Below, one piece after another: positions 1 through 53,685 of a DNA stretch of 64,000 nt. The position numbers and the translations under genes are program-made. The notes beneath the pieces are model-generated. The model saw only the letters and a list, made by a program, of their open reading frames with translations. It did no database searches and was not told where the DNA came from. Positions within the stretch are counted from its first letter, which is position 1; the number at the start of each line of letters is the position of its first letter. The stretch spans positions 50,096,001-50,160,000 of the forward strand of contig OY740786.1 in assembly GCA_963514005.1 (NCBI GenBank), read 5' to 3'. Origin of the DNA: Raja brachyura (lineage: Eukaryota).

Positions 1-6
1 GGCTTA

Positions 7-85
7 GGCCTGTCCCACTTTGCCCGTCACTTACGCGACAGACCGGTGGCGCGCGAAGAATTTGTTCGCTAAAAAATTTTGCACA
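7..85. mobile_element. Fragment of a Harbinger-type DNA transposon end (single TIR)
   Basis: TTA followed by GGCCTGTCCCACTT, resembling the TIR of the MITE at 59923-60444. No partner TIR was seen. Confidence 0.45.
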
Positions 86-615
86 ACTCCATACCCCTCC
101 AATGTTGTGTTCAAACTTTATTTAATATTAAGGATGTAATCCCTGATCTCCCACATAATCTCCCATTATGGCACTTGCACATTTTAATCTGCATTTTCTC
201 TGGAGCTGTAACACCTTAACATTGTACTTTGTGCACTCAAAGAGAGAATGGACAGTATGTTACGTCATTTAGTTACTAACTTTCTCCTCTCTCCATTAGT
301 ATTCCTCCACCGCACACTCAAAGCACATATCCATGAGCACTCAGTGTATAAATTGTATTGTTACAATTGAAGAAAAATTACTTTCAGTTAAATACAAATT
401 ATTTTTGTCTATTCTGACAAAGGTGACCCAGGAATTCAGATGGGAGAATAACAATAGTAATTCCCATTATCATTTACACTGAATTTTTCTTACGGACCTT
501 GTGTCAAGGGATGACACTTTCACAATGAGAGGACAAATTATTCAATTATGACAATAATTGACTACGTCAGACAACGCATAGAGGTCATTCTTGTGGAGTT
601 ATCCACTACTATTCT

Positions 616-755
616 GACTTCTTCTTGTGTATGGGGTGCACTGCCTAAAGTTGTAGAACAACTTGTTCTATTTGATCTTATTTGATTGTGCACGGCGGGT
701 TGATTGCATTCGTCGAAACGGGGCGGACCACGTGAAGGTTGCAATCTTCCACCCC
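616..755 (-). mobile_element. 140-bp short retroposon with a ribozyme head and an (AAG)n-like tail (RTE-type non-autonomous element)
   Basis: 8-bp TSD ACTATTCT at 608-615 and 756-763. The minus strand starts GGGGTGG and ends CACAAGAAGAAGTC. Confidence 0.8.
702..755 (-). ncRNA. Minimal HDV/CPEB3-like self-cleaving ribozyme (54 nt, P4 reduced to a loop)
   Basis: P1 GGGGUGG/CCGCCCC, P2 GAUUGCA/UGCAAUC, P3 ACC/GGU, L3 UUCACGU, J1/4 GU, UUCGA in place of P4, J4/2 CGAA with the candidate catalytic C at 712. Confidence 0.85.
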
Positions 756-1490
756 ACTATTCTACTAATGCCCAAGGATACACCTCATGGAACATGATGC
801 ATTCTTGACGGTAATTAAGGTATTGGAAAATGCTTTTGCTCTGTAGGGCACAGGATAAATGAACAGCAAGTACTCTCCAAAAGGACGAGGCATATATTAA
901 ATAAATTAATCCATTGTAAAGTAATAATATTTGTGAAGATGCTGTAGTTCATTCAACTACAGGTCCTTGAAGATATTTGACAGTTCAAACAATTGGAATG
1001 TGTAGATGAGGGAGGGAAATATTGTGTCATTTTCAAACTTCTAATCGCATTCAATTCATGAATGCAAATATATCCATCCTTCGACACAGAGTCTAAAAAT
1101 GCTTCTATTTAGGCAGCCCATAGAGATTTACGCGACTCAATTTTTTTGTATTCCCTTCTCCCACAATAAACTTTATTTTTATTTCGGACACAAGGTCCAG
1201 AGAAGGGATAACATTACATAAAAATACAATGCATATAAAAACATCGCAAAATACATATAAAATCTTAGTATGTCACATAAAAGCATCATAAATTATATAT
1301 ATTAAAAAAACGCAATACATGAATTAAAAAAATATATATATTTAGTGTTCTCTGCAAACATACTAACCTACCTATATTTTTGCCCAATTCATTCATTTAT
1401 TTATATCACAAACAGCAATGTCCCAGCAAAGATCCCTGCAGAACACCACTGGTCATAGATCTCCAGCCAGAATAAAAAACATCCTTCCAC

Positions 1491-3394
1491 CATAGAAAAC
1501 ATAGAAAAATAGATGAAGGAGTAGACCATTCGGCCCTTCGAGCCAGCACCGCCATTCAATATGATCATGGCTGATCATCTAACATCAGTAGCCTGTTCCT
1601 GCTTTTTCCCCATTTCCCCTGATTCCTTTAGCCGTAAGGGCTATATCCAACCCTCTCTCTTGAAAGCCACAGAGAATTCCACAGACTCACCACCCTCCAT
1701 GAGAAAATGTGTTTACTCATTTCCGTTCTAAATGGCTTACTCCTTATTCTTAAACTGTGGCCCCTGGTTCTGGAATCCCCCCGACATCGGGAACATGTTT
1801 CCTGCCTCTAGTGTGTCCAAACCCTTAACAATCTTATATGTTTCAATGAGATTCCCTCTCATCCTTCTAAACTCCAGAGTGTACAAGCCCAGCTGCTCCA
1901 TTCTCTCAGCATATGACAGTCCCGCCATCCTGGGAATTAACCTTGTAAACCTACGCTGCACTCCTTCAATAGCAAGAATGTCCTTCCTTAAATTAGGGGA
2001 CCAAAACTGCACACAATACTCCAAGTGTGGTCTCACTAGGGCTCTGTACAAATGTAGAAGGACCTATTTGCTCCCATATTCGATTTGTCTTGTTATAAAG
2101 GTGAACATGCCATTCGCTTTCTTCACCGCCTGCTGTACCAGCATGCTTACTTTCATAGACTGATGTACAAGGACCCCCAGATCCTGTTGTACTTCCCCTT
2201 TTCCCAACTTGATGCCATTTAGATTGTAATCTGTCTTCCTGTTTTTGCTACCAAAGTGGATAAGCTTACATTTATCCGCATTAAACTTCATCTGCCATGC
2301 ATCTGCCCACTCCGCCAACCTGTCCAAGTCATGCTGCATTCTCATAGCATCCTTCTCACAGTTCACACTGCCACCCAGCTTTGTGTCATCTGTAAATTTG
2401 CTAATGTTACTTTGAATCCCTTCATCCAAATCATTGATATATATTGTAAATAGCTGTGGACCCAGCACCGAGCATTGTGGTACCCCACTAGTCACTGCCT
2501 GCCATTCAGAAAGGGACCCATTAATCCTTACTCTTTGTTTCCTGTCTGCCAACCACTTCTCTATTCATGTCAGCACTCTACCCCCAATACCATGTGCCCT
2601 AATTTTGCCCACTAATCTCCTATGTGGGACCTTATCAAACACTTTCTGAAAGTCCAGGTACACCACATCCACTGGCTCTCCCTTGTCCATTTTCCTAGTT
2701 ATATTTTCAAAAAATTCCAGAAGATTGGTCAAGCACGATTTCCCCTTCGTAAATCCATGCTGACTCAGACCGATCCTGTTACTGCTATCCAAATGTGCGG
2801 CTATCTCATCTTTTATAATTGACTCCAGCATCTTCCTCACCACCAATGTCAGGCTAACTAGTCTATAATTCCCCGTTTTCTCTCTCCGCCTTTCTTAAAA
2901 AAGTGAGATAACATTAGCTACCTTCCAATCCACAGGAACTGATCCTGAGTCTATAGAATATTGGAAAATTATCACCAATGCATCTATGATTTCTAGAGCC
3001 ACTTCCTTAAGTACCTTGGAATGCGGACCATCAGGCCCTGGGGATTAATCAGCCTTCAGTGCCATCAGTCTATCCAACACCATTTCTAGCCTAATGTGGA
3101 TTTCCTTCAGTTCCTCTGTCACCCCAGATCCTCTGGCCACTACTTTATCAGGAAGATTGTTTGTGTTCTCCTTAGTGAAGACAGATCCAAAGTACCTGTT
3201 CAACTCATCTGCCATTTCCTTGTTCCCCAGAATAAATTCACCTTTTTCGGTTTTCAAGGGTCCAACTTTGATCTTAGCTAATTTTTTCCTCTTCACATAG
3301 CTAAAGAAGCTTTTACTGTCCTACTTTATATTCTTGCCTAGCTTACCTTCACACCTCATCTTGTCTCCCCGTATTGTTTTTTTGGTTATCTTCT
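1491..3394 (-). mobile_element. CR1 LINE, 5'-truncated, disrupted ORF2 (reverse transcriptase)
   Basis: ORF pieces QHGFTKGKSCLTNL, VYLDFQKVFDKVPH, SGVPQCSVLGP, KFTDDTK, YRALVRPHLEYCVQFW. Tail (CTATGTTT)-like repeat at 1491-1510. Contains stops and frameshifts. Confidence 0.93.
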
Positions 3395-6372: not shown

Positions 6373-7367
6373 TCACTGGGGAATAACTGTATGTTGTTGA
6401 CCAGCACTCAGCACGGCCTCTGCGAACATAACAGGAGCGGTAACAGGTTTATTGTAAAACCGCTGAAAGGTGGCTTCACTAGCCCAGCCTGCTGTGGCAA
6501 AAATATGATCCATGGGCACCTCCATGACCTTCGCCGCCAACGTGGATGCAGCCCTGGTGGAATGGGATTTAAAGACATTAATGTCAATACCTGCTGCATC
6601 CAACATGACCCTGAGCCACCTGGAGATCATCTGTACTGACACTCTGTGATTTTGTTTCTTATGGCTTATCAGCAGATACTTCTCCATTCCCCTTAGGGTC
6701 CGCGTCACTTTTATATAATGATGGATATGGGTGGCTAAACAGAGCCTCACATCAGCGGGGTATACCGGAAAAACCAGCTGCAGCCCTGTAAATCCAGGTC
6801 TGTGCTGCTTCAGTAACTCGTCAATGTAAAAAGTTACTTTCTCCGGGGTAGAGACCATTCTGTCAATATTGATTTTTTGTAATGTCTGTACCCATTGTGC
6901 TGATGTTAGTGCCAATAACATCACCAATTTCAAGGCGAGTTTGTCCAAAGAAAGTCCAACCATGGGTGACCATGTCCTGAGTAGGGTTAATACTACCTCA
7001 ATGTCCCAGGTGACATTGTAACGTGGTCGGGGAGGGTTTGAATTAAATATACCCCTCATCAATTTGGGCACTAGTTTGTGTGATCCTACTTCAATGGTAA
7101 GGTAGGAGGATAGTGTACTTCTGGCACTATTGATGGCATTGATTGGTAGCTGAGGTGTTCATCATGATGCAACCCCGCAAGAAATTCCAACACATGTGGT
7201 ATAGTTTCGGAGTCATATGATATGTTCATCCGGCTGCAGTACGCCTCCCATTTTCTTATTTGGGTTAGGTATTGCCGTCTTGTTGACTCCCTGCACAATG
7301 CTCCGATGGTATCCATGGTCCTTGGTGTGAGACCATATTGCAGTAGGAGTCTGTTCAAAACCTGCAG
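6373..7367 (-). pseudogene. DIRS tyrosine recombinase, copy 1 (frameshifted)
   Basis: ORFs 7086-7493 and 6373-7071 carry HSTR, AGW and FY. The first catalytic Arg is changed to Trp (SAQW versus SAQR in copy 2). Confidence 0.9.
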
Positions 7368-25872: not shown

Positions 25873-28800
25873 TTAAACAGAATCGCCATAACGAACAGGT
25901 GGCTTGCTGATCCGGCCCGAGCGCGTACGGATGCCTCCCCCTTCCCCCGGAGGAGCAGAAAAAACAGGGGGACCCGAGACAGCAGGGGAACCAGGGAAGG
26001 GCGGTGGGGTTGGAGGAACAGCGGAGGGAGAACCGCGACTGCCAACAGGTGACCCGCGCAGAGGGGAACCGGGCGCTCGATATGGGGACCGAGGCATGCA
26101 GGGAACGCTGGCTGGGACAGGAGCCGGCTGCTGGTATGAGAGCGGCGGGGCATAGGGGCCCGGGGCCTGCGGCTTCGGCTCATTAACCGCAAGCAGGTGT
26201 TGTCGGCTTCTACGGTAGATGGTTCCCTCATAGTCGACCAGATACGAACGAGGTGAGTCGGCCACCCCAACCACAGTAGCCAGACGGGAGTGACCACTGG
26301 CGGTTTGCAATCGAACAACCTGTCCAGGCAACAGAGGATCGAGTGGTCTGCACGACCGATCGTGGGAACGCCGCTGGCTGTCATGTTTCTCTTGAATGCG
26401 CCTCTGCACAGAGGCAGGCTCCAGCGCCCGAGGTTTCAGCTGGCGCTGGGCAATCGGGATGGTAGATCTGGTTGTTCTGGACATCAGACGCTGAGCAGGG
26501 GACCCCATGGCCGGATCTCTGGAAACATTCCTGAGGTTCAGGAGATCCAAATACAAATCAGAGTTAGACAGTCTCGCTTGTTCCATCAGAAGCTTGGCGC
26601 TGCGGACGGCCCGTTCAGCAAGGCCGTTGCTCTGTGGGTACTCCGGGCTGCTGGTGAAATGCACAAAATTCCATTTGTCAGCAAAACTTTTGAACTCACG
26701 GCTGGTAAACTGCCTGCCATTGTCAGTCTGCAGCCTGACAGGGGACCCAAACGTGGAGAAGTGTTTCCGCAGCTTCCGGATCACCATCTCCGACGTGAGG
26801 GATGTCAGCAAATCCACCTCGAACCAGTTTGAGTACGAGTCGACCAGGACAAGGTAGTGGTTACCACGCCACTCGAAGATGTCGGCAGCCAGCGAGGACC
26901 AGGCCAAGGCAGGAGCGGGCTGTTGCAGCAGGGGCTGTCGCTGCTGATGTGGAGCAAGACTGTTGCACGTGGAGCAGGCAGAAACACGGTCTCGAATATA
27001 TTTGGCCATTCCAGGCCAGTAGAATTGGCACTGAGCATGGGCGAGTGTTGCATCGACCCCGGGGTGTCCGCTGTGGGCTGCGCAGTAGTAAGAATCGAAC
27101 AGGGAGGACGGGACCACCACTTTATGTCCCTTAACGATAACGCCATTCTGGAGCACCAGTTCGTCACGGACCAGGAAGAAGGGCTGTGTTTCAGGCGGTG
27201 CAGCGGAGCGCTTTGTTGGCCACCCTGATTTAATCACAGACGCAAGCCGTTGCCAAACTGGATCGGCAGCGGTGTGCTCGGCCAAAAGCTGCAGCTGCTT
27301 GGTGGGAATAAAATTGACGCCCAGTACGAGCAAGTCCTCTGTTTCGTAGGGGTGGCGAGCACAGGAGGCCCGCGGGGCGCGCGATAACGTGTCCGCGATG
27401 TGCATCTCGGTGCCTTTCTTGTAGACGATGTCGAAATCAAAGCGCTGGAGCTGCAGCATCATACGCTGCAGCCTGGCAGGGGCAGCATGAATCGGCTTGT
27501 TCAGGATTGTCACCAGTGGCTGGTGGTCGGTTTCGACTGTAAATCTGCTGCCAAACAGGAAGTCTCTGAACTTGGAGCAGGCAAACACCACCGCAAGCAG
27601 CTCCTTCTCGATCTGAGCGTACCGCTGCTCGGTGTCCGTCATGGTGCGGGAGGCATAGGAGACAGGATGTAACGATCCATCGACAGATTGGAGGCATGCC
27701 GCGCCCAGGCCGAACTTAGAAGCGTCACATGTGACGGTGATGGGGCGACTCGCATCAAAAAATCGCAACGTCGGAGTGTTAATCAGTTTCGACTTGAGAC
27801 AGTCAAACGCCTGCTGGTGCTGTGGGAGCCAGACCCAGGCGATATCCTTTTTTGTCAGCTGCCGCAGGGGAGCACTCAGCTCACTGAGATGTGGTACAAA
27901 CTTCCCAAGGTAGTTCACCATGCCCAAGAAACGTTGTAGACCTGGCACGTCGGTGGGGGCTGCCATCTCAGAGATGGCCGCTGCCTTCAAAGGGTCGGGT
28001 TTTAGTCCGTTAGAGGTGAAAACGTGTCCAACATACGTGACTTCTGAGACACGAAACCGGCACTTCTTTGGGTTCAGCTTCAGGTTGGCCTTTCGCGCCC
28101 GATCCAGGACGCGGCGGAGGTTCTGGTCATGTTCGGCAATGTCCTTCCCATAGACTAAGATGTCATCCACGATGATGGCACATGGCAAGCCCGAGAATAT
28201 CTGCTCCATCGTTCGCTGGAACACCTCACTAGCGGAATTGATGCCGAATGGCATTCGCAGGAATTTGAATCTGCCGAATGGTGTGGCGAAGGTTGTCAGG
28301 TCGGAAGATGCTTTGTCCAACGGGATCTGCCAGAACGAGTTCTTAGCGTCTAGGACCGAAAAGACGGTGGCTTGCCCGACCTGAGCCGCCACGTCCTCAA
28401 CAGACCGCATGGGGTAGTGTGGTCGCCTGATGGCAAGGTTTAAGTCCTTGGGGTTGATACACACACGTATTTCATTCTTGTCTTTCTTTATCGTGGCAAC
28501 CATGGTGGAGACCCAATCGGTGGGCTCGCTGACCGCTTCTAGCACCCCCTTGTCAACCATGTTGTTAAGCATCGCCTCGACCCCGTCTTTCATGGCGGGG
28601 GACACCCTGTGAGGTGCGCGGACCACGGGTTGTACATTTGGGTCAATGGAAATATGGTATGTCAGTGGTAACTTTCCCAGGTCATCGTTGAACAGGTCCT
28701 GGTATTCTGCAATCGGGTTAAATGACAGTTGCACTTTGTGGACCGTGTGGTCGAAGGACACCAGGCCAAGATCTTGGCACGCACGGTTTCCCAGCAGGGT

Positions 28801-30024
28801 AACACAGTCAGAGTTCAAAACATAAAAAATCAAGTTTCTCGTGGCCTTCTGTAGCCTGCAAGTTAAAGTGGCCCTCCCCACAGGCCTGAGAATTTCTCCA
28901 CCATAGGCATGCAGTGTAGCATTGTCAGCGACCAAGGCCTCATTAGTCCTTATCTTGTTGAAAAGATTTATTGACAAAACATTGACCTTTGCCCCAGTAT
29001 CTAACTTCGCAAGGAAGGTTACATTGTTGACAGTCACAGACACGGAGGGATCAAGACGTTGGCCAGGTGCCTGGAGGAGGGTAAACACATTCGAATCCTC
29101 GGGAGAATTAATTGGATCTGCATCATAGGATTCAGCAACATCGGGCTGTGGGTTGGAACAGCTATCAGATTGTTTAAGCATGTTTAGACTGGGTCTGGAA
29201 ATCTGTACCTGTCTCCCACGAGAACGGAATGAGCGGCAGGCAGAAGCGAAATGATTCAGTTTGTTACAAAAATTACAAGCCTTGCCATAGGCAGGGCACG
29301 TCGACCGTCTGTGGTGCATGTAGTTACAGTTAGGGCACCTTTTTGGGGGCACATCAGCAGGACCAGGGTTGGCACGCGGCAGAAAAGCATTGTTTCCCCT
29401 CTGAGGCGGGGCTCTACTAAATCCAGCCTGGTGAACAGACTTATCTCCCAAGTCCCGGTGATCATCTGGCAATACAACGACCTCAGACAATCTGCAGGCA
29501 TGCATGGCTTTTTCTAACGTTAGATCCGGATCCCTAAGAAGCTCACATCGCAGCTTCTGGTCACGCATGCCAGTTACTAAAATGTCTCTAGTGAGCTGGT
29601 CTGTCATGTCACCGAAACGGCACCGCTGGGCGAGATAACGCAAATCGGCAATAAAACATTCAGCATGTTCCTCCGGCAGCTGTCTCCTTGTAAAGAACCG
29701 TGCCCTCTCTAGAATGCGGTTCGAGGGCAGGTCACAAATCTCCCTGAACTTACGTAGCAGGCAAGCAGGGTCACTGGCAGATTCTGCAGGGGTAACCACC
29801 ACGTTGTTGTCGTCCAGGACCGCTGGAGCATAGACGAAAGTTCTGGCTCTCTTCATGGCATCAGGTCCGACAAGGTTGAGTAGGAGGGAGGCTTTGAGGG
29901 AGTCAGGATCATTGCGGTGAGCGACGTTGACAAAGTGGGTGAAATCAATTTCAAACGTAGCCCAGCGCTCAGAAATATCAGCATCAAAGACAAGCTGCGC
30001 GGGCTTTCTGCACGAGGATGCCAT
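25873..30024 (-). CDS. Gag-Pol polyprotein (Gag with two Cys/His knuckles, protease, RT, RNase H, integrase)
   Basis: Open frame 25873-30096, first ATG at 30024 (MASSCRK). Motifs CPNC..H..C, CNFCNKLNHFASAC, LDTGA, RMPFG, IVDD, TCDAS, AHSGH..CSTC, ADIF/TDNG/NGLAER and C-terminal TRSGR..KPP. Confidence 0.95.
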   Translation of the reverse strand: MASSCRKPAQLVFDADISERWATFEIDFTHFVNVAHRNDPDSLKASLLLNLVGPDAMKRARTFVYAPAVLDDNNVVVTPAESASDPACLLRKFREICDLPSNRILERARFFTRRQLPEEHAECFIADLRYLAQRCRFGDMTDQLTRDILVTGMRDQKLRCELLRDPDLTLEKAMHACRLSEVVVLPDDHRDLGDKSVHQAGFSRAPPQRGNNAFLPRANPGPADVPPKRCPNCNYMHHRRSTCPAYGKACNFCNKLNHFASACRSFRSRGRQVQISRPSLNMLKQSDSCSNPQPDVAESYDADPINSPEDSNVFTLLQAPGQRLDPSVSVTVNNVTFLAKLDTGAKVNVLSINLFNKIRTNEALVADNATLHAYGGEILRPVGRATLTCRLQKATRNLIFYVLNSDCVTLLGNRACQDLGLVSFDHTVHKVQLSFNPIAEYQDLFNDDLGKLPLTYHISIDPNVQPVVRAPHRVSPAMKDGVEAMLNNMVDKGVLEAVSEPTDWVSTMVATIKKDKNEIRVCINPKDLNLAIRRPHYPMRSVEDVAAQVGQATVFSVLDAKNSFWQIPLDKASSDLTTFATPFGRFKFLRMPFGINSASEVFQRTMEQIFSGLPCAIIVDDILVYGKDIAEHDQNLRRVLDRARKANLKLNPKKCRFRVSEVTYVGHVFTSNGLKPDPLKAAAISEMAAPTDVPGLQRFLGMVNYLGKFVPHLSELSAPLRQLTKKDIAWVWLPQHQQAFDCLKSKLINTPTLRFFDASRPITVTCDASKFGLGAACLQSVDGSLHPVSYASRTMTDTEQRYAQIEKELLAVVFACSKFRDFLFGSRFTVETDHQPLVTILNKPIHAAPARLQRMMLQLQRFDFDIVYKKGTEMHIADTLSRAPRASCARHPYETEDLLVLGVNFIPTKQLQLLAEHTAADPVWQRLASVIKSGWPTKRSAAPPETQPFFLVRDELVLQNGVIVKGHKVVVPSSLFDSYYCAAHSGHPGVDATLAHAQCQFYWPGMAKYIRDRVSACSTCNSLAPHQQRQPLLQQPAPALAWSSLAADIFEWRGNHYLVLVDSYSNWFEVDLLTSLTSEMVIRKLRKHFSTFGSPVRLQTDNGRQFTSREFKSFADKWNFVHFTSSPEYPQSNGLAERAVRSAKLLMEQARLSNSDLYLDLLNLRNVSRDPAMGSPAQRLMSRTTRSTIPIAQRQLKPRALEPASVQRRIQEKHDSQRRSHDRSCRPLDPLLPGQVVRLQTASGHSRLATVVGVADSPRSYLVDYEGTIYRRSRQHLLAVNEPKPQAPGPYAPPLSYQQPAPVPASVPCMPRSPYRAPGSPLRGSPVGSRGSPSAVPPTPPPFPGSPAVSGPPVFSAPPGEGGGIRTRSGRISKPPVRYGDSV

Positions 30025-30100
30025 GGTCAGAGAGATAAAGCACAAAAGGCACAAATCAAATAAAAGAAATAAAACCCGATGGGCAGGTAGGCGCAAGTAT

Positions 30101-30118
30101 CTTCCAGCTCCGACACCA
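30101..30118 (-). other. Primer binding site (tRNA-Leu-like)
   Basis: TGGTGTCGGAGCTGGAAG directly after the 5' LTR. It resembles the TGGTGTCAG-type Leu PBS; the tRNA assignment is tentative. Confidence 0.65.
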
Positions 30119-30321
30119 TGTAAATAGGCAATTTACAAACTCTAAAAGTGTTCAACACATTTTAATGATAGCACAAGGTATTACATACATCCTCAAATAC
30201 TGGCTACATTCTTCTAGTGAACCGTATCCAGGAAGGGGAAGGCGTTATGATTGATGTTAACTAGGCGGGGTTAATGGTACTGAGGTAACTATGTTATTGG
30301 TTGCATGCAAAACCATCTACA
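30119..30321 (-). repeat. Gypsy 5' LTR
   Basis: Identical to 25608-25810. Confidence 0.97.
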
Positions 30322-48783: not shown

Positions 48784-48930
48784 GCATATCGTCGCTACGC
48801 ATTTGCAGTCGACGGCTGGAGGTGGAGCGCGGCTTACCACCAGCCCTTCATAAGGGCCACTCAGGTAAGTACAGGCAACCTTGAGCTGGTTGTCCCTGCT
48901 GTTTTGAATTGTTTTTTCTCCAACAGGGAC

Positions 48931-50689
48931 ATGGATAAGAGGAGTACGGGCCGCAGGACTTCCGAAAGGAGTCGTTGGCCGCTTATCCCGGAGCTCTCTT
49001 CAACGACAGCACCCGCTAGACGGGCCGGGAGAAAGGCGCGAAAATTGGGGAGCCCTGTGTTTACAGGACCAGACCCACCGACACAGTTGTGCACAAGCGG
49101 GGTTCCCGCAGAGCAGGAAGTCGGTACGACGCCCTGACTCCATTTCATTATCGCCAACAGGATCGTTGGCTGATATGAGTAAACGGGTTTCACGTGCTGC
49201 TGCACGGCCCTTCTCCCTGAGCCCTCGTGGAAGAGCCAGGGATAGAGCTCAACAACCAAGCCCTTTTCGGACAGAGATTTCACCAGAGACCGCTAGATTG
49301 CGGACTGGTGGGTTAGCGAGACCCGAGTCCACTGGCAGACCAGGGAGGGCCAGTGTAGACTCACCACCTAGTTGGACCAGGAGGAGTCACACAGGTGGAG
49401 TCTCGCCACGGTCACCACATCCCCCGTTGGCGGCAAGACGGGACCGTACGCCGTCTGGGTCCAGGAAAATGACAGTCGGCAAGCCCGCGCGGATGTCGGG
49501 TCACCACGCTGCGGCGTTGGGTGCCGACTTCACACCGCATATGCCCTTGGAGGCAGTCGGGCCTAGCTCAGCCAAAAGGAGGCGTATGAGCAGATCCGCG
49601 CGGGAGTCGTTCAGTTTCGCTGAGGCGGCTGGCAGCGAATTTTCGTCACAGCACCGAGATTACCTCGACGAGGTACGGGCCGATGATAGGAGCCTCAGGA
49701 GTTCCTTCGGGCATGAGGACTCTGACCGCCTATTCGCGCACGATGAAGGGCGCATTGATCGGATGGAGAGGATGATGGAATGGATCCTGCAGCAAAATCA
49801 ACGGCGGGAAACATCCAGTTCCAGGGGACTCATGGACATATCCCCATCATCAATGGATAGCATGAGGCAGCCAGAAGAAAAGGAGATCTTGGTACACGTA
49901 CCAGTGGCACCTGAGGTCCCTCAGGAAGAACTCCTGGACGTGGCAGCCAAGTTTGCGTTACCCGAATCATCGGGACAACCCCTCAATACCAAACTGTCCG
50001 CTACCATTGATTTCCTCACCAACCATCAGCTACAGGATCAGGTCCTTGCGGAGGAATTGAACAGACACAAGGCACCGAGTAATTGTAACTCGCTCAATGT
50101 GCCTATTGTGAACATGCCTATTTGGGGCAATATTAGCCCGGGCATTAGAGCACAGGAAGTAAAGTTACAAAGAATCCTGAAACTGCTCACATCTGGGATT
50201 ACCGCTTTTGCGAGGTCGGTGGACGGTGTGGACTTGAACTCCGAACAGGAGGATGCTCTTGCACTACTATGCAACACGCAATATGAAATAAATGCGTTTC
50301 GGAAAAGCATCATCAAGCCTACGTTAAACCCCAAATTTGCGGGGCTATGCAGAGCATCCCCAACACCACCACCCAGACAGCTATTCGGAGAAGGCCTTCC
50401 GAAGCAGGTCAAGGATTTAGATGACCAAGCCAAGACAGTGGGTCTTATGAGGTCACACACCTTGACCAGACAAACGGCCAGGAAAACATCATATTTCAGG
50501 CCACGGGGTGATACCAAAAGGCCAGCAAGGACCTACATACCGGCGCCTCCACAATACCAACATTCTCAACAGCCCAGGCCTTTTTTAGGGCAAGGCCCGC
50601 AGCGGCCAGCATGGAAGATGCGGTTTCCGCATCACCAGCACAACCCAGCACCTCCACGTCCCACCAAACATATCAGGGACCGCCGATAA
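48931..50689 (+). pseudogene. DIRS gag-like ORF1 (one frameshift near 49133)
   Basis: ATG at 48931 (MDKRST). The frame continues as the 507-aa ORF 49166-50689 after a +1 shift, inferred from alignment with copy 1 (PDSI). Confidence 0.85.
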
Positions 50690-52610
50690 CCATGAAGGTA
50701 AGGCGGTCTGGATTTCATGCACTTGCATGTCTAACCTCACATGTTGGGGGTAGACTACGGTTTTTTAAGGAGGCATGGGAAACCATCACCTCAGATGAGT
50801 TTATCTTACAAAGTATTCAAGGCCATGAGATTGAGTTTATAAATGGTCAAATTCCTCCACCTCAGCTTATGCCGAATCGCAAATTTGCACTTTCCAGCAA
50901 GGAAACAGCAGTAGGCTATGCTGAAATCTTGAGACTACAAGGGAAAGGTGTGATAGAAAGAACTATACATGAACCAATTGAATTTGTATCTAACATATTC
51001 ACAAAAACCAAGAAAGATGGTGGATGTCGGGTCATTATAGATCTAACCCATTTGAATACTTTTGTAAAATATACCCATTTCAAAATGGACACGTTCAAAA
51101 CAGCCAAATCTTTGATTTCTGAGGGCTGCTTCATGGCATGCATTGATTTAAAAGATGCATACTATTCAGTATCCATTCAGAAACATCACAGGAAGTTCTT
51201 GAAGTTTACCTGGATGGATCAACTTTGGCAATACAAAGCTTTGCCCAATGGGCTTACCACAGCCCCCAGATTGTTTACTAAATTACTCAAGCCAGTGCTA
51301 GCAACACCGAGGAGGCAAAACCATACGGTTATGGCTTACCTGGATGATATCCTAATCATTGGGAATACACTGGAATCAGCAAAATTGGCAGTTTCAGCCA
51401 CTGTGGAAATATTTCAAAAAATGGGATTTATTATCCATCCAGATAAATCAGTTCTGTCCTTCACAGATCATGGACTATCTGGGATTCACGGTGGATTCCA
51501 TTCGCATGATTGCCACCATACCAACTAACAAAGTTGGGGATATCATTCAAGCATGTAAGAATCTGGTCTGCGCCAGTATACCATCAATCAGACAAGCTGC
51601 TAAGGTGATTGGGAAAATTGTACCAGTTTTTCCAGCTGCTCAATTCGGACCTTTACATTATCAAAATTTGCAAAGATCCAAGATTTCAGCGTTAAAATTG
51701 AATGCTGGACATTTTGATAGACCCATGCAGCTGCCATTTAAGGCAAAAACAATGGTGGATTGATAATATCCGTAACTCATTTAAACCCATCATTGTGCCT
51801 CGTCCGGTGGTATACTTACAAACAGACGCAAGCTCCCATGGGTGGGGAGCTACGGACAACAACACAAGTTGCGGAGGCAGATGGGACACCCTTGAATCTA
51901 CCCTGTTGTTATCACATGGGATAAATTATTTGGAGATGCTAGGAGCATTCCACGGACTTAGAGCTTATTGTTCAAACTTTACTGACACTCATGTCCGTCT
52001 CCAAATAGACAATACCACTGCGGTGGCATATCTAAATCATATGGGCGGTACCAGATCAATTTCATGTGATGAATTGGCAAATACAATTTGGCTCTGGTGC
52101 ATACAACGGAATATTTGGATTTCAGCTACCTATCTACCAGGTAAGCTCAATACAGTGGCGGACACCAGGTCACGGAAATTTAATGACAACATCGAGTGGA
52201 TGTTAAATCCCCAAATATTCACCAAAATTACAGCCTAATTTGGTAAACCGGATATTGACCTTTTTGAGTCACGGTTGAACCATCAGGTACCAACATACGT
52301 ATCATGGGAGCCAGATCCTGGGGCAATGGTGATGGACGCGTTCTCGCTAGATTGGGGGAAATGGTTTTTCTATGCATTTCCTCCATTTTGCCTCATCAGT
52401 CGGGTATTGCGGAAAATCCAGTTAGATGCTGCTAAAGGCATTCTTGTCATACCCGACTGGCCTACTCAGCCATGGTATCCGGTGGTCCTTGGATTGATCA
52501 GTCAACCATGGGTCCTCTTAGATGGTTGCCCACAATTGGTGACGAACCCTGTTACAGGGGAACAACATCCCTGCCATAGTCACTTGAAATTATTGGCTTG
52601 CAGGTTCTGA
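50611..52610 (+). pseudogene. DIRS pol (RT, RNase H, adenine-MTase-like domain) with two frameshifts and one stop
   Basis: VGGRL, IDLKDAYYSV, ALPNGL, YLDD, TDAS..GWGA, IDN, N..AD..SR, YAFPPF. Breaks at about 51450, about 51750 and TAA 52236-52238. Confidence 0.93.
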
Positions 52611-53587
52611 ACAGACCATTACTGCAGTATGGTCTCTCATCAAGGACAATGGATACAATTGGAGCATCATGCAGGGAGTCCACAAGACGGCAATATTTAA
52701 CGCATATCAGGAAATGGGAAACCTACTGCGGCCGCTTGAACATTGCATATGACTCCGTTTCAATCACAGATGTGCTGGAATTCCTTGCTGGGTTGTATCA
52801 TGACGAACACCTCAGCTGCAGTGCCATCAATAGCGCCAGGAGTGCGCTATCATTCTACCTCAATATTGAAGTAGGATCCAATAAACTGGTGTCCAAACTG
52901 ATGTGGGGAATATTTAATTCCAATCCGCCAAGACCCCGTTACAACGTCACCTGGGACATTGGGAAAGTTCTAACCCTACTCAGGACGTGGTCGCCCATGG
53001 CTGGGCTTGAATTGGACAAACTCACCCTGAAGCTGGTGATGTTATTGGCACTTACTTCAGCACAAAGGGTACAGACATTTCATAAGGTCAAGATTGACAG
53101 AATGTTCTCTACCCCAGAGAAAGTAATTTTCTTTGTTGATGAATTACTAAAGCAGCATAGACCTGGATACACAGGGCTGCAGCTGGTGTTTCCAGCATAC
53201 CCCACTGATGCTAGGCTATGTTTAGCCACCCATATCCGCCACTATATAAGAGTGACGCGGAAATTAAGGGGAATGGAAAAATACCTGCTAATCAGCCACA
53301 AAAAACCTCACCATAGAGTGACGGTACAGACGATCTCCAGATGGCTCAGGATCGTCTTGAACGAAGCAGGTATTGACACCAATGTCTTTAAATCCCATTC
53401 CACCAGGGCTGCATCAACATTGGCGGCAAAGGTCATGGAGGTGCCCATGGACCATATTCTTGCCACAGCGGGATGGGCTAGTGAAGCCACCTTTCAACAG
53501 TTTTATAACAAACCTGTTACCGCTCCTGTAATGTTCGCAGAGGCCGTGCTGAATGCGGGTCAAGAACATACAACTACTCCCCAGTGA
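52598..53587 (+). CDS. DIRS tyrosine recombinase, open frame
   Basis: 329-codon ORF with SAQR, HSTR, AGW and FY (R-H-R-W-Y set). First in-frame ATG at 52649. Confidence 0.9.
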   Translation: MQVLNRPLLQYGLSSRTMDTIGASCRESTRRQYLTHIRKWETYCGRLNIAYDSVSITDVLEFLAGLYHDEHLSCSAINSARSALSFYLNIEVGSNKLVSKLMWGIFNSNPPRPRYNVTWDIGKVLTLLRTWSPMAGLELDKLTLKLVMLLALTSAQRVQTFHKVKIDRMFSTPEKVIFFVDELLKQHRPGYTGLQLVFPAYPTDARLCLATHIRHYIRVTRKLRGMEKYLLISHKKPHHRVTVQTISRWLRIVLNEAGIDTNVFKSHSTRAASTLAAKVMEVPMDHILATAGWASEATFQQFYNKPVTAPVMFAEAVLNAGQEHTTTPQ

Positions 53588-53685
53588 GGGTTTTTTTCTT
53601 TTTGTTATTATTAATAAATATTATTATTTTTCAGTAGAAGCAGTCCGAAAATTTGATTACTCCTATCCATCCTTACAGTGGATCT

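Follow-up and report, generated by a model that had tools for sequence, protein, structure and literature searches.

A family of short retroposons headed by a predicted P4-less HDV-like ribozyme and its likely Vingi-clade partner LINE

Results and Discussion

The element and other features of the window

The window, by which we mean the whole stretch of 64,000 nucleotides (nt) that was analysed, from a genome of 2.7 Gb, contains on its minus strand a short retroposon of a family that we designate V1 (subfamily A). The initial annotation had described a 140-bp retroposon at 616..755. An intact element was indeed found, and its span was refined to 620-755 (-), 136 bp, once a target-site duplication (TSD) of 11 bp is accepted. 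As had been proposed, the TSD boundary coincides with the predicted cleavage site: G755, which is nt 1 of the element, adjoins ACTATTCT (756-763), and the second copy of this 8-bp core lies at 608-615. Judging from the sequence, the TSD is likely 11 bp long with a 1-nt insertion at 616 (756-766 versus 617-619 plus 608-615), a reading that agrees with the family mode of 11-12 bp. Its two copies then cover 756-766 (5' copy, with one indel allowed) and 608-619 (3' copy), both (-).

All parts of the element are given here on the minus strand. A minimal (P4-less) HDV-like ribozyme fold was recognised at 702-755, with cleavage predicted 5' of G755. The 5' strand of P1 (749-755) pairs with 720-726, beginning with G1-C in the window copy and G1.U in the family, and that of P2 (740-746) pairs with 702-708. 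P3 (737-739/727-729) and its loop L3 (730-736), which contains the P1.1 cytosine, together cover 727-739. The segment 713-719 consists of J1/4 (718-719) and the 5-nt loop in the place of P4 (713-717), and J4/2 (709-712) contains C712 as the predicted catalytic cytosine as well as 711, one of only two sites of the fold that vary at the family level. The fold is part of a block (675-755) that aligns to nt 1-81 at the 5' end of a partner LINE. A junction linker at 662-674, which probably stems from a short duplicated piece of the LINE 5' UTR and a few extra bases, connects it to a block from the 3' end of the partner (620-661) with the last ORF codons and stop, about 20 nt of 3' UTR and the (AAG)n tail. 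The predicted arms of an end-pairing stem lie at 688-696 (5' arm) and 633-641 (3' arm), and are weakened in the window copy by changes at 695 and 635, respectively.

Elsewhere in the window, an open frame of 1,419 codons is located in a GC-rich stretch at ~25876-30132 (-) and looks like what we take to be an LTR-retrotransposon polyprotein. Open frames of 261-593 codons at ~48900-53600 (+) and near 6400-7150 (-) resemble what are presumably genes of tyrosine-recombinase (DIRS-like) retroelements. The sequence at ~1495-2000 presumably derives from the 3' end of a LINE of CR1 type that is similar to shark/ray HER1. Repeats in the vicinity of the element presumably belong to types known from cartilaginous fishes.

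Family size, copy ends and insertion traces

The 22-mer core of the head had 9,238 exact matches in the genome and a tail 26-mer (one N) had 8,171, with 0 matches for the reversed control of the head and 0 for the control of the tail. By mark-recapture (exact head word in 30/70 tail-anchored copies, tail word in 7/20 head-anchored copies) we estimated ~22,000-23,000 copies, which is likely a lower bound. Stated conservatively, the family has at least 9,000 and likely about 20,000 copies.

The 5' ends were determined for the first 70 tail-pattern matches on contig C1, picked irrespective of the head. In 59 of these the element began at nt 1-3, in five at nt 5-6 and in one at nt 20, and the head was absent in the remaining five. 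A TSD of at least 7 bp was found in 52 of the 59 copies that begin at nt 1-3 compared with 20 of 590 mismatched-flank controls, and TSD length in the 52 copies was 8-13 bp with a mode of 11-12 bp. These counts substantiated that the locus belongs to a real retroposon family with TSDs, an (AAG)n tail and a common 5' end at G1. Extra bases at the 5' junction (n=52) were none in 40 copies, T in four, G in three, C in two, and A, CT and CG in one each, and thus no cap-like excess of G was seen. 5' transduction was not detected by a simple ungapped test, in which no pair among 99 distinct copies was at least 70% alike over 30 nt of upstream flank. Two copy pairs seen by eye to have both flanks in common are duplications. 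The absence of a junction-G excess and of a common upstream flank fits a cut 5' end, without proving one.

The copies fall into two subfamilies, A and B, that are distinguished by the length of the linker. For copies of modal length only, the median divergence from the subfamily majority was 5.7% in A (14 copies) and 3.1% in B (32 copies). Closely spaced head matches on contig C1, which had been considered as LTR-like or tandem units, turned out to be independent or rearranged copies instead. Among single loci, a subfamily B copy with TSD (L186:132-267, +) is inserted inside the 5' end of its own partner LINE. Two rearranged loci were also noted, one with two elements joined tail to tail (L055:6084-6253), and one in which the tail has grown to a purine-rich triplet repeat of ~1.9 kb (L042).

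The HDV-like fold of the window copy and its family

The letters of the minus strand from 755 to 702 and the P1/P2/P3 pseudoknot were found as first written down. All 17 of 17 pairs of P1-P3 are formed in the window copy, plus C22-G37 as P1.1. The replacement of P4 by a 5-nt loop was seen in the mini-element and already in its partner LINE. Among V1 copies the catalytic C was present in 60/65 and is followed by any base, then by A in 63/65 and A in 65/65, and G1 was present in 59/65. Family-level variation within the fold was restricted to nt 8 (J1/2) and nt 45 (the second base of J4/2), and the equivalents of these two positions are tolerant in HDV ribozymes. The fifth pair of P1 is U5.G in the mini-element versus U5-A in the head of the partner LINE. 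In the pseudoknot-free minimum-energy fold of the window copy P2 is kept, but nt 58-62 replace the P1 3' strand as the partner of nt 3-7, an option that arises from the copy-specific change at 695 and that we counted against the interpretation given below.

The letters of L3, J1/4 and J4/2 are, as the initial annotation stated, identical to those of the mammalian CPEB3 ribozyme (RF00622). P1.1 consists of a single Watson-Crick pair, which we likewise counted against this interpretation. This C22-G37 pair was present in 11/13 head rows, never covaried and adjoins a U.U, and one pair plus U.U is also what forms P1.1 in the CPEB3 ribozyme (PMC9901934). V1 differs from the CPEB3 ribozyme in the sequence of P1, P2 and P3 and in the absence of P4, and it fails the RF00622 model: at E<=10 there was no match (cut-off 35 bits) for the window copy, nor was there one for three other V1 loci. 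The best that the window copy reached in Rfam was 16.9 bits on HDV-F-prausnitzii (RF02682), below the cut-off of 44. No other RNA family matched the element at E<=10, none of the Rfam matches was to a P4-less model, and a scan of window positions 1-3000 gave sub-threshold matches only. The fold is not a chance occurrence: a 25-mer was absent from all of 100 shuffled sequences, and with a structure-only HDV descriptor 79 matches were obtained in 1.18 Mb of DNA, consisting of loci chosen for holding such elements, versus 0 in the same DNA reversed. The fold is predicted to self-cleave 5' of G1.

The partner LINE

When the tail of the mini-element was read as the end of an ORF, the resulting pattern had 51 matches, which were mostly 3' ends of one LINE. 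An autonomous LINE sharing both head and tail, for which the initial annotation had suggested a search, thereby came to light: L159 is a full-length copy of 3.1 kb with both, and other copies of this LINE begin at G1. Several full-length LINE copies are without the first 7-9 nt, a point that we counted against the interpretation given below. Mini-element and LINE have the last ~37-38 nt in common and both end in (AAG)n. The subfamily majorities align to LINE nt 8-81 (A) or 9-72 (B) plus the last 37 nt, with a match of ~90% at both ends. Since the first ~80 nt and the last ~40 nt come from one LINE, the element is a LINE with an internal deletion, as is already known from NARTc and R2 SIDE. It shows the features of a bipartite, ORF-less non-autonomous LINE, with 5' and 3' blocks from the same LINE, a TSD, a common tail and no tRNA-derived Pol III head. 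The initial annotation had seen no Pol III A/B box, and inspection likewise revealed no canonical one; ARAGORN gave 0 genes in 5/5 loci. A tRNA-derived head was rejected on these ARAGORN results and because the element starts at nt 1 of the LINE. The earlier notion of a separate module, in which a ribozyme head had been joined to a LINE tail, was given up as well: the head is the LINE's own 5' end, and P4 is already absent there.

The LINE consensus, with a broken ORF, matches a homolog of 1,019 aa (P0001) over aa 33-1019 within ~3.1 kb. P0001 is the closest of the listed homologs with 67% identity, followed by others with 44-50%; those with names come from arthropods. Pfam domains of the partner were APE, RVT_1 and a weak C-terminal zf-RVT. 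RNase H was found neither in P0001 or P0070 at E<=1 nor in six pieces of the LINE (Pfam). Vingi elements are described as having a compact single ORF with APE and RT and without RNase H (PMC13708176), and on these sequence features the partner likely belongs to the Vingi clade. In an RT tree the partner of V1 and the LINEs of two families described below, V2 and V3, formed one clade (SH-aLRT 88) apart from the RTE and CR1-like rows; the tree was made by a quick method from 43 rows with long branches, included 35 of 120 listed homologs (index-picked, plus five by hand) and contained no named Vingi or Ingi row. V2 and V3 are placed in another subclade than the partner, and this, together with the identities and origin of the protein homologs, may point to horizontal transfer. 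PDB matches were distant R2 and L1 RTs only. Copies of the LINE showed a mean identity of 91.6% to the consensus and none near-intact was seen, and the LINE family may therefore be extinct. Beyond this genome, head-tail joints of the mini-element were present in three organisms (contigs of two, RNA reads of the third), and the body of the LINE in contigs of other organisms.

The initial annotation had assumed an RTE-type LINE as the partner, i.e. a SINE made of a ribozyme head and an RTE tail that is mobilised by RTE. There is indeed an abundant RTE family of similar age with (AAG)n at the end as well, and at its 5' end lies an HDV-like fold of its own with a 16-nt P2-P3-L3 word in common with V1. 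Its tail, however, is unrelated, with no similarity in 30 + 20 RTE loci (local scores 14-16), and it is another LINE, far outside RTE in the tree, that matches both ends at ~90%. A search with DUF6451, in which 50 loci from 150 matches all belonged to one RTE family with an unlike tail, likewise led us to reject this partner. Mobilisation by RTE is thus largely refuted, and we regard it as highly improbable. By eye, the RTE 5' fold (L088 ~2495-2660, +; L089; L091) has an extended P4 region, and C is the first base of its P1.

Sister families with related heads

Among 59 scored candidates from the genome, 41 matched the RF00622 model, 32 of them at or above the cut-off of 35 bits, compared with 0/14 prokaryotic controls. 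The 23 passers that were inspected are heads of sister families, designated V2-V5. The best 20 matches represent three families with a full P4 (V2, V3 and V4), whose heads reach up to 65.8 bits. A V2 head was found on a full-length LINE with TSD (L307), and V3 heads adjoin inverted ORF pieces of the same LINE clade in L308 and L309. For V4 no LINE body was found within 4 kb. The heads of the V4 loci (L294, L295, L296, L304 and L305) are CPEB3-like, have a longer P4 and are followed by ~40-50 nt that these loci have in common. Three lower matches represent V5, a second P4-less mini-element of ~165 bp with a 6-bp P1, an (AAG)n tail and a TSD (L324, L325 and L326; it also occurs within L060). A further family, V6, was found by the descriptor scan at L091:180-375 (+), with ~190 bp, a full-P4 HDV-like head and a 12-bp TSD.

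An alignment of 13 heads from six families showed that 94.8% of cells were paired, compared with 39-51% in slid controls, and that two-sided changes occurred in 13 of 18 pairs; the rows are related and hand-picked, with four from V1, V5 offset by one in P1 and two V3 rows decayed at the catalytic C. The HDV/CPEB3-type fold with conserved pairings, originally read from one locus, is thus borne out by pairs that covary across sister families. These five sister families with covarying heads, one of them near the CPEB3 consensus, are new here.

End pairing and LINE inversions

Pairing between a 24-nt stretch that follows P2 and a 30-nt stretch ahead of the tail is predicted in five families. The mean duplex energy was -14.7 kcal/mol within families (n=29) versus -9.0 across families (sd 2.7, n=92), and pairing was best within the own family in 10 of 11 rows. 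Compared with shuffled sequences, 7/11 rows beat at least 99%, and the other 4/11, including the window copy, were weak (40-87 of 1000). Both stretches were delimited after the stem had been noticed by eye, and the V1 arm contains a palindrome. The stem is strong in V6.

An inverted 5' piece was found in 11 of 72 LINE copies, a small sample anchored on the 3' end or middle of the LINE from which five duplicates and three mini-element matches had been excluded. In 9/11 of these the captured piece was the head; it ended at nt ~68-106, and 0.3-2.9 kb between the two parts was missing. The 5' block of the mini-element ends in the same zone. From head capture and this common end zone we infer that the LINE protein may hold the region just behind the ribozyme during insertion, and both RNA ends appear to act together. 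The recurrent stem between the 5' and 3' ends and the capture of heads by LINE inversions are also new here.

Proposed mechanism and RNA evidence

The copies have shared ends, TSDs and 5' ends at G1, the fold covaries among the sister families, and the architecture of the partner is evident from L159 and its relatives. We hold it to be highly probable that the element is an internally deleted derivative, ~135 bp long, of a 3.1-kb LINE of likely Vingi affiliation, retaining its first ~80 and last ~40 bases, that its first 54 bases adopt an HDV-like fold without P4 whose predicted cut lies before G1, and that it is likely copied in trans by the endonuclease/reverse transcriptase of the LINE. A copy would be transcribed, most likely by host Pol II read-through, and the fold would then cut at nt 1 and shield the uncapped 5' end, so that new copies would have unit length and no upstream flank. 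A stem of 7-9 bp between the bases just after the ribozyme and those just before the tail might hold both ends for the LINE protein, which would prime on the (AAG)n tail and leave a TSD of 11-12 bp. The element itself might have arisen by a jump from the 3' end to nt ~80 via the same end contact, which would explain both its origin and head capture in LINE inversions.

Four sequencing sets were aligned to the element and four to the LINE; for three sets the label as RNA is a guess, and ends cannot be read from contigs. In the RNA run X23 (poly(A), from a related species; 828 aligned reads from the 6% of the run that was covered) no pile-up of ends at nt 1 was seen. In the same run 315/828 reads crossed 755-757 into the flank, counted without strand resolution and held against cleavage. 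First mates were oriented at about 1.5:1, a ratio from which we draw no conclusion. The reads across nt 1 may derive from antisense, mutated or slow copies.

These reads would also suit a head that is mainly an internal Pol II promoter like Pr77, where the transcription start sets nt 1 and the ribozyme does secondary trimming. Such a dual function is known from the sister clade, in which the first 77 nt of L1Tc/NARTc are both promoter and ribozyme (PMC3383444), and the 5' block kept in V1 (~72-81 nt) is of like length. A capped template might, however, leave an excess of G at the junction, which was not found (G 3, CG 1 of 52); the heads of the six families conserve pairing and not sequence, and the one RNA run contains hardly any LINE body. 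A head that acts mainly as a promoter is therefore unlikely in our opinion. The two roles are not mutually exclusive.

Alternatively, after the loss of P4 cleavage might be slow or absent, and the fold might serve the RNA 5' end as a protective knot or as a handle for protein binding. The function of the R2 template has been reported to improve with a highly stable HDV-like fold, likely because this limits 5' decay (PMC11331408), and the one-pair P1.1, the uncut-looking reads across nt 1 and head capture in 9/11 inversions, which suggests protein contact near the head, are in line with this. On the other hand, the majority of every family retains the catalytic C and the following AA, with the base between them varying, minimal P4-less ribozymes are active in vitro (PMC10879173), and a knot alone gives no precise 5' end from read-through RNA. 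We consider a fold kept for such a role, with slow or no cleavage, quite improbable, and favour a self-cleaving head on the internally deleted LINE.

Comparison with known systems

HDV-like ribozymes in animal LINEs and SINEs are known in general (PMC6765202), and those of R2 SIDE and NARTco self-cleave in vitro (PMC3414825, PMC4035085). NARTc, RIME and NARTco, the non-autonomous derivatives of L1Tc/Ingi with Pr77, are like V1 in being ORF-less and consisting of the first ~77 and the last ~30-40 nt of a LINE (PMC3383444, PMC4035085). NARTc and V1 further share an HDV-like fold from nt +1 and dispersed insertion, and the clade of the NARTc group is sister to Vingi (PMC13708176). Unlike NARTc, V1 has an animal host, a partner without RNase H, a length of ~135 bp and ~20,000 copies; L1TcRz has a P4 and the V1 fold none, and the tail is poly(A) in NARTc and (AAG)n in V1. 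The R2 SIDEs of Drosophila are likewise internally deleted LINEs that kept a 5' HDV-like ribozyme and the 3' end, and non-templated bases occur at the 5' junctions of both (PMC3414825). They differ from V1 in being specific for 28S rDNA, ~530 bp long and equipped with a large ribozyme and an RLE-type partner, whereas V1 inserts genome-wide and has an APE-type partner. Non-autonomous Vingi derivatives (Vingi-1_EE) also arose by internal deletion of a Vingi LINE with both ends kept (Kojima et al. 2011, via PMC5786205).

In its fold V1 resembles the minimal HDV-like ribozymes (drz-Mtgn, theta), which likewise have a short loop for P4 and the catalytic C in J4/2. Nearly 99% of minimal/theta ribozymes are from Caudoviricetes phages (PMC10879173), whereas the V1 fold heads an animal retrotransposon with thousands of copies. 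A P4-less HDV-like head on an animal retrotransposon family is thus new here, this form being otherwise described almost only from phages in the accessible literature. The ~20,000 P4-less mini-copies represent a natural variant library and are a possible source of cuts in host RNA.

Vingi heads and the CPEB3 ribozyme

The majority sequence of five V3 heads was identical to the Rfam CPEB3 consensus at 59/67 positions (by eye), among them the two strands of P4 and a two-sided change in P2; a single decayed V3 copy (L290) agreed at 54/67. The match thus includes the sequence of the P4 stem and goes beyond what the fold dictates. The V2-V4 heads resemble the head of the Repbase element Vingi-2_Gav as printed in the supplement of PMC5786205 (nt 2-74), which matches the CPEB3 consensus at 52/54 positions outside the tip of P4 (by eye). 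Shared descent is likely, as the simplest reading of the resemblance between the V3/Vingi heads and the CPEB3 ribozyme. The latter is a single intronic copy, stated not to have been found beyond mammals and to lack outgroups (PMC8233481). Because the mammalian copy is single and intronic and the mobile copies are many, we infer the direction from LINE to gene, and the CPEB3 ribozyme is likely a domesticated Vingi head.

In the accessible part of PMC5786205 CPEB3 is not mentioned and Vingi is absent from the ribozyme-bearing clades, and the connection is not made in the accessible parts of PMC10919898, PMC5753468 or a 2026 preprint. Our literature search retrieved no paper linking CPEB3 and Vingi, and among its results no title or opening of an abstract pointed to the V1 family; Ruminski 2011, Kojima 2011, Webb 2009, Webb and Luptak 2011, Riccitelli 2014, Repbase reports and patents lay outside its scope and may hold part of the link.

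In a wider reading, which we think is probably correct, the CPEB3 ribozyme would be a domesticated 5' end of a Vingi LINE, the heads of the Vingi clade would be of CPEB3 type with paired RNA ends, and the loss of P4 in some lineages would have produced the tens of thousands of minimal ribozymes seen here. The Vingi heads would then be the missing outgroup of CPEB3, and the ribozyme-plus-stem cassette of ~135 nt a minimal template for a Vingi gene writer. As to the origin of the CPEB3 ribozyme, the LINE heads supply candidate relatives with 59/67 consensus positions. Vingi proteins are under development as gene writers (PMC13708176), and the 5' and 3' signals that may suffice for this purpose can be seen from a natural element of 135 nt that is full-length in most copies. 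An even shorter element of ~95 bp, at L306:~1512-1605 (+), seemingly consists only of a V2 ribozyme and a tail of ~25 nt.
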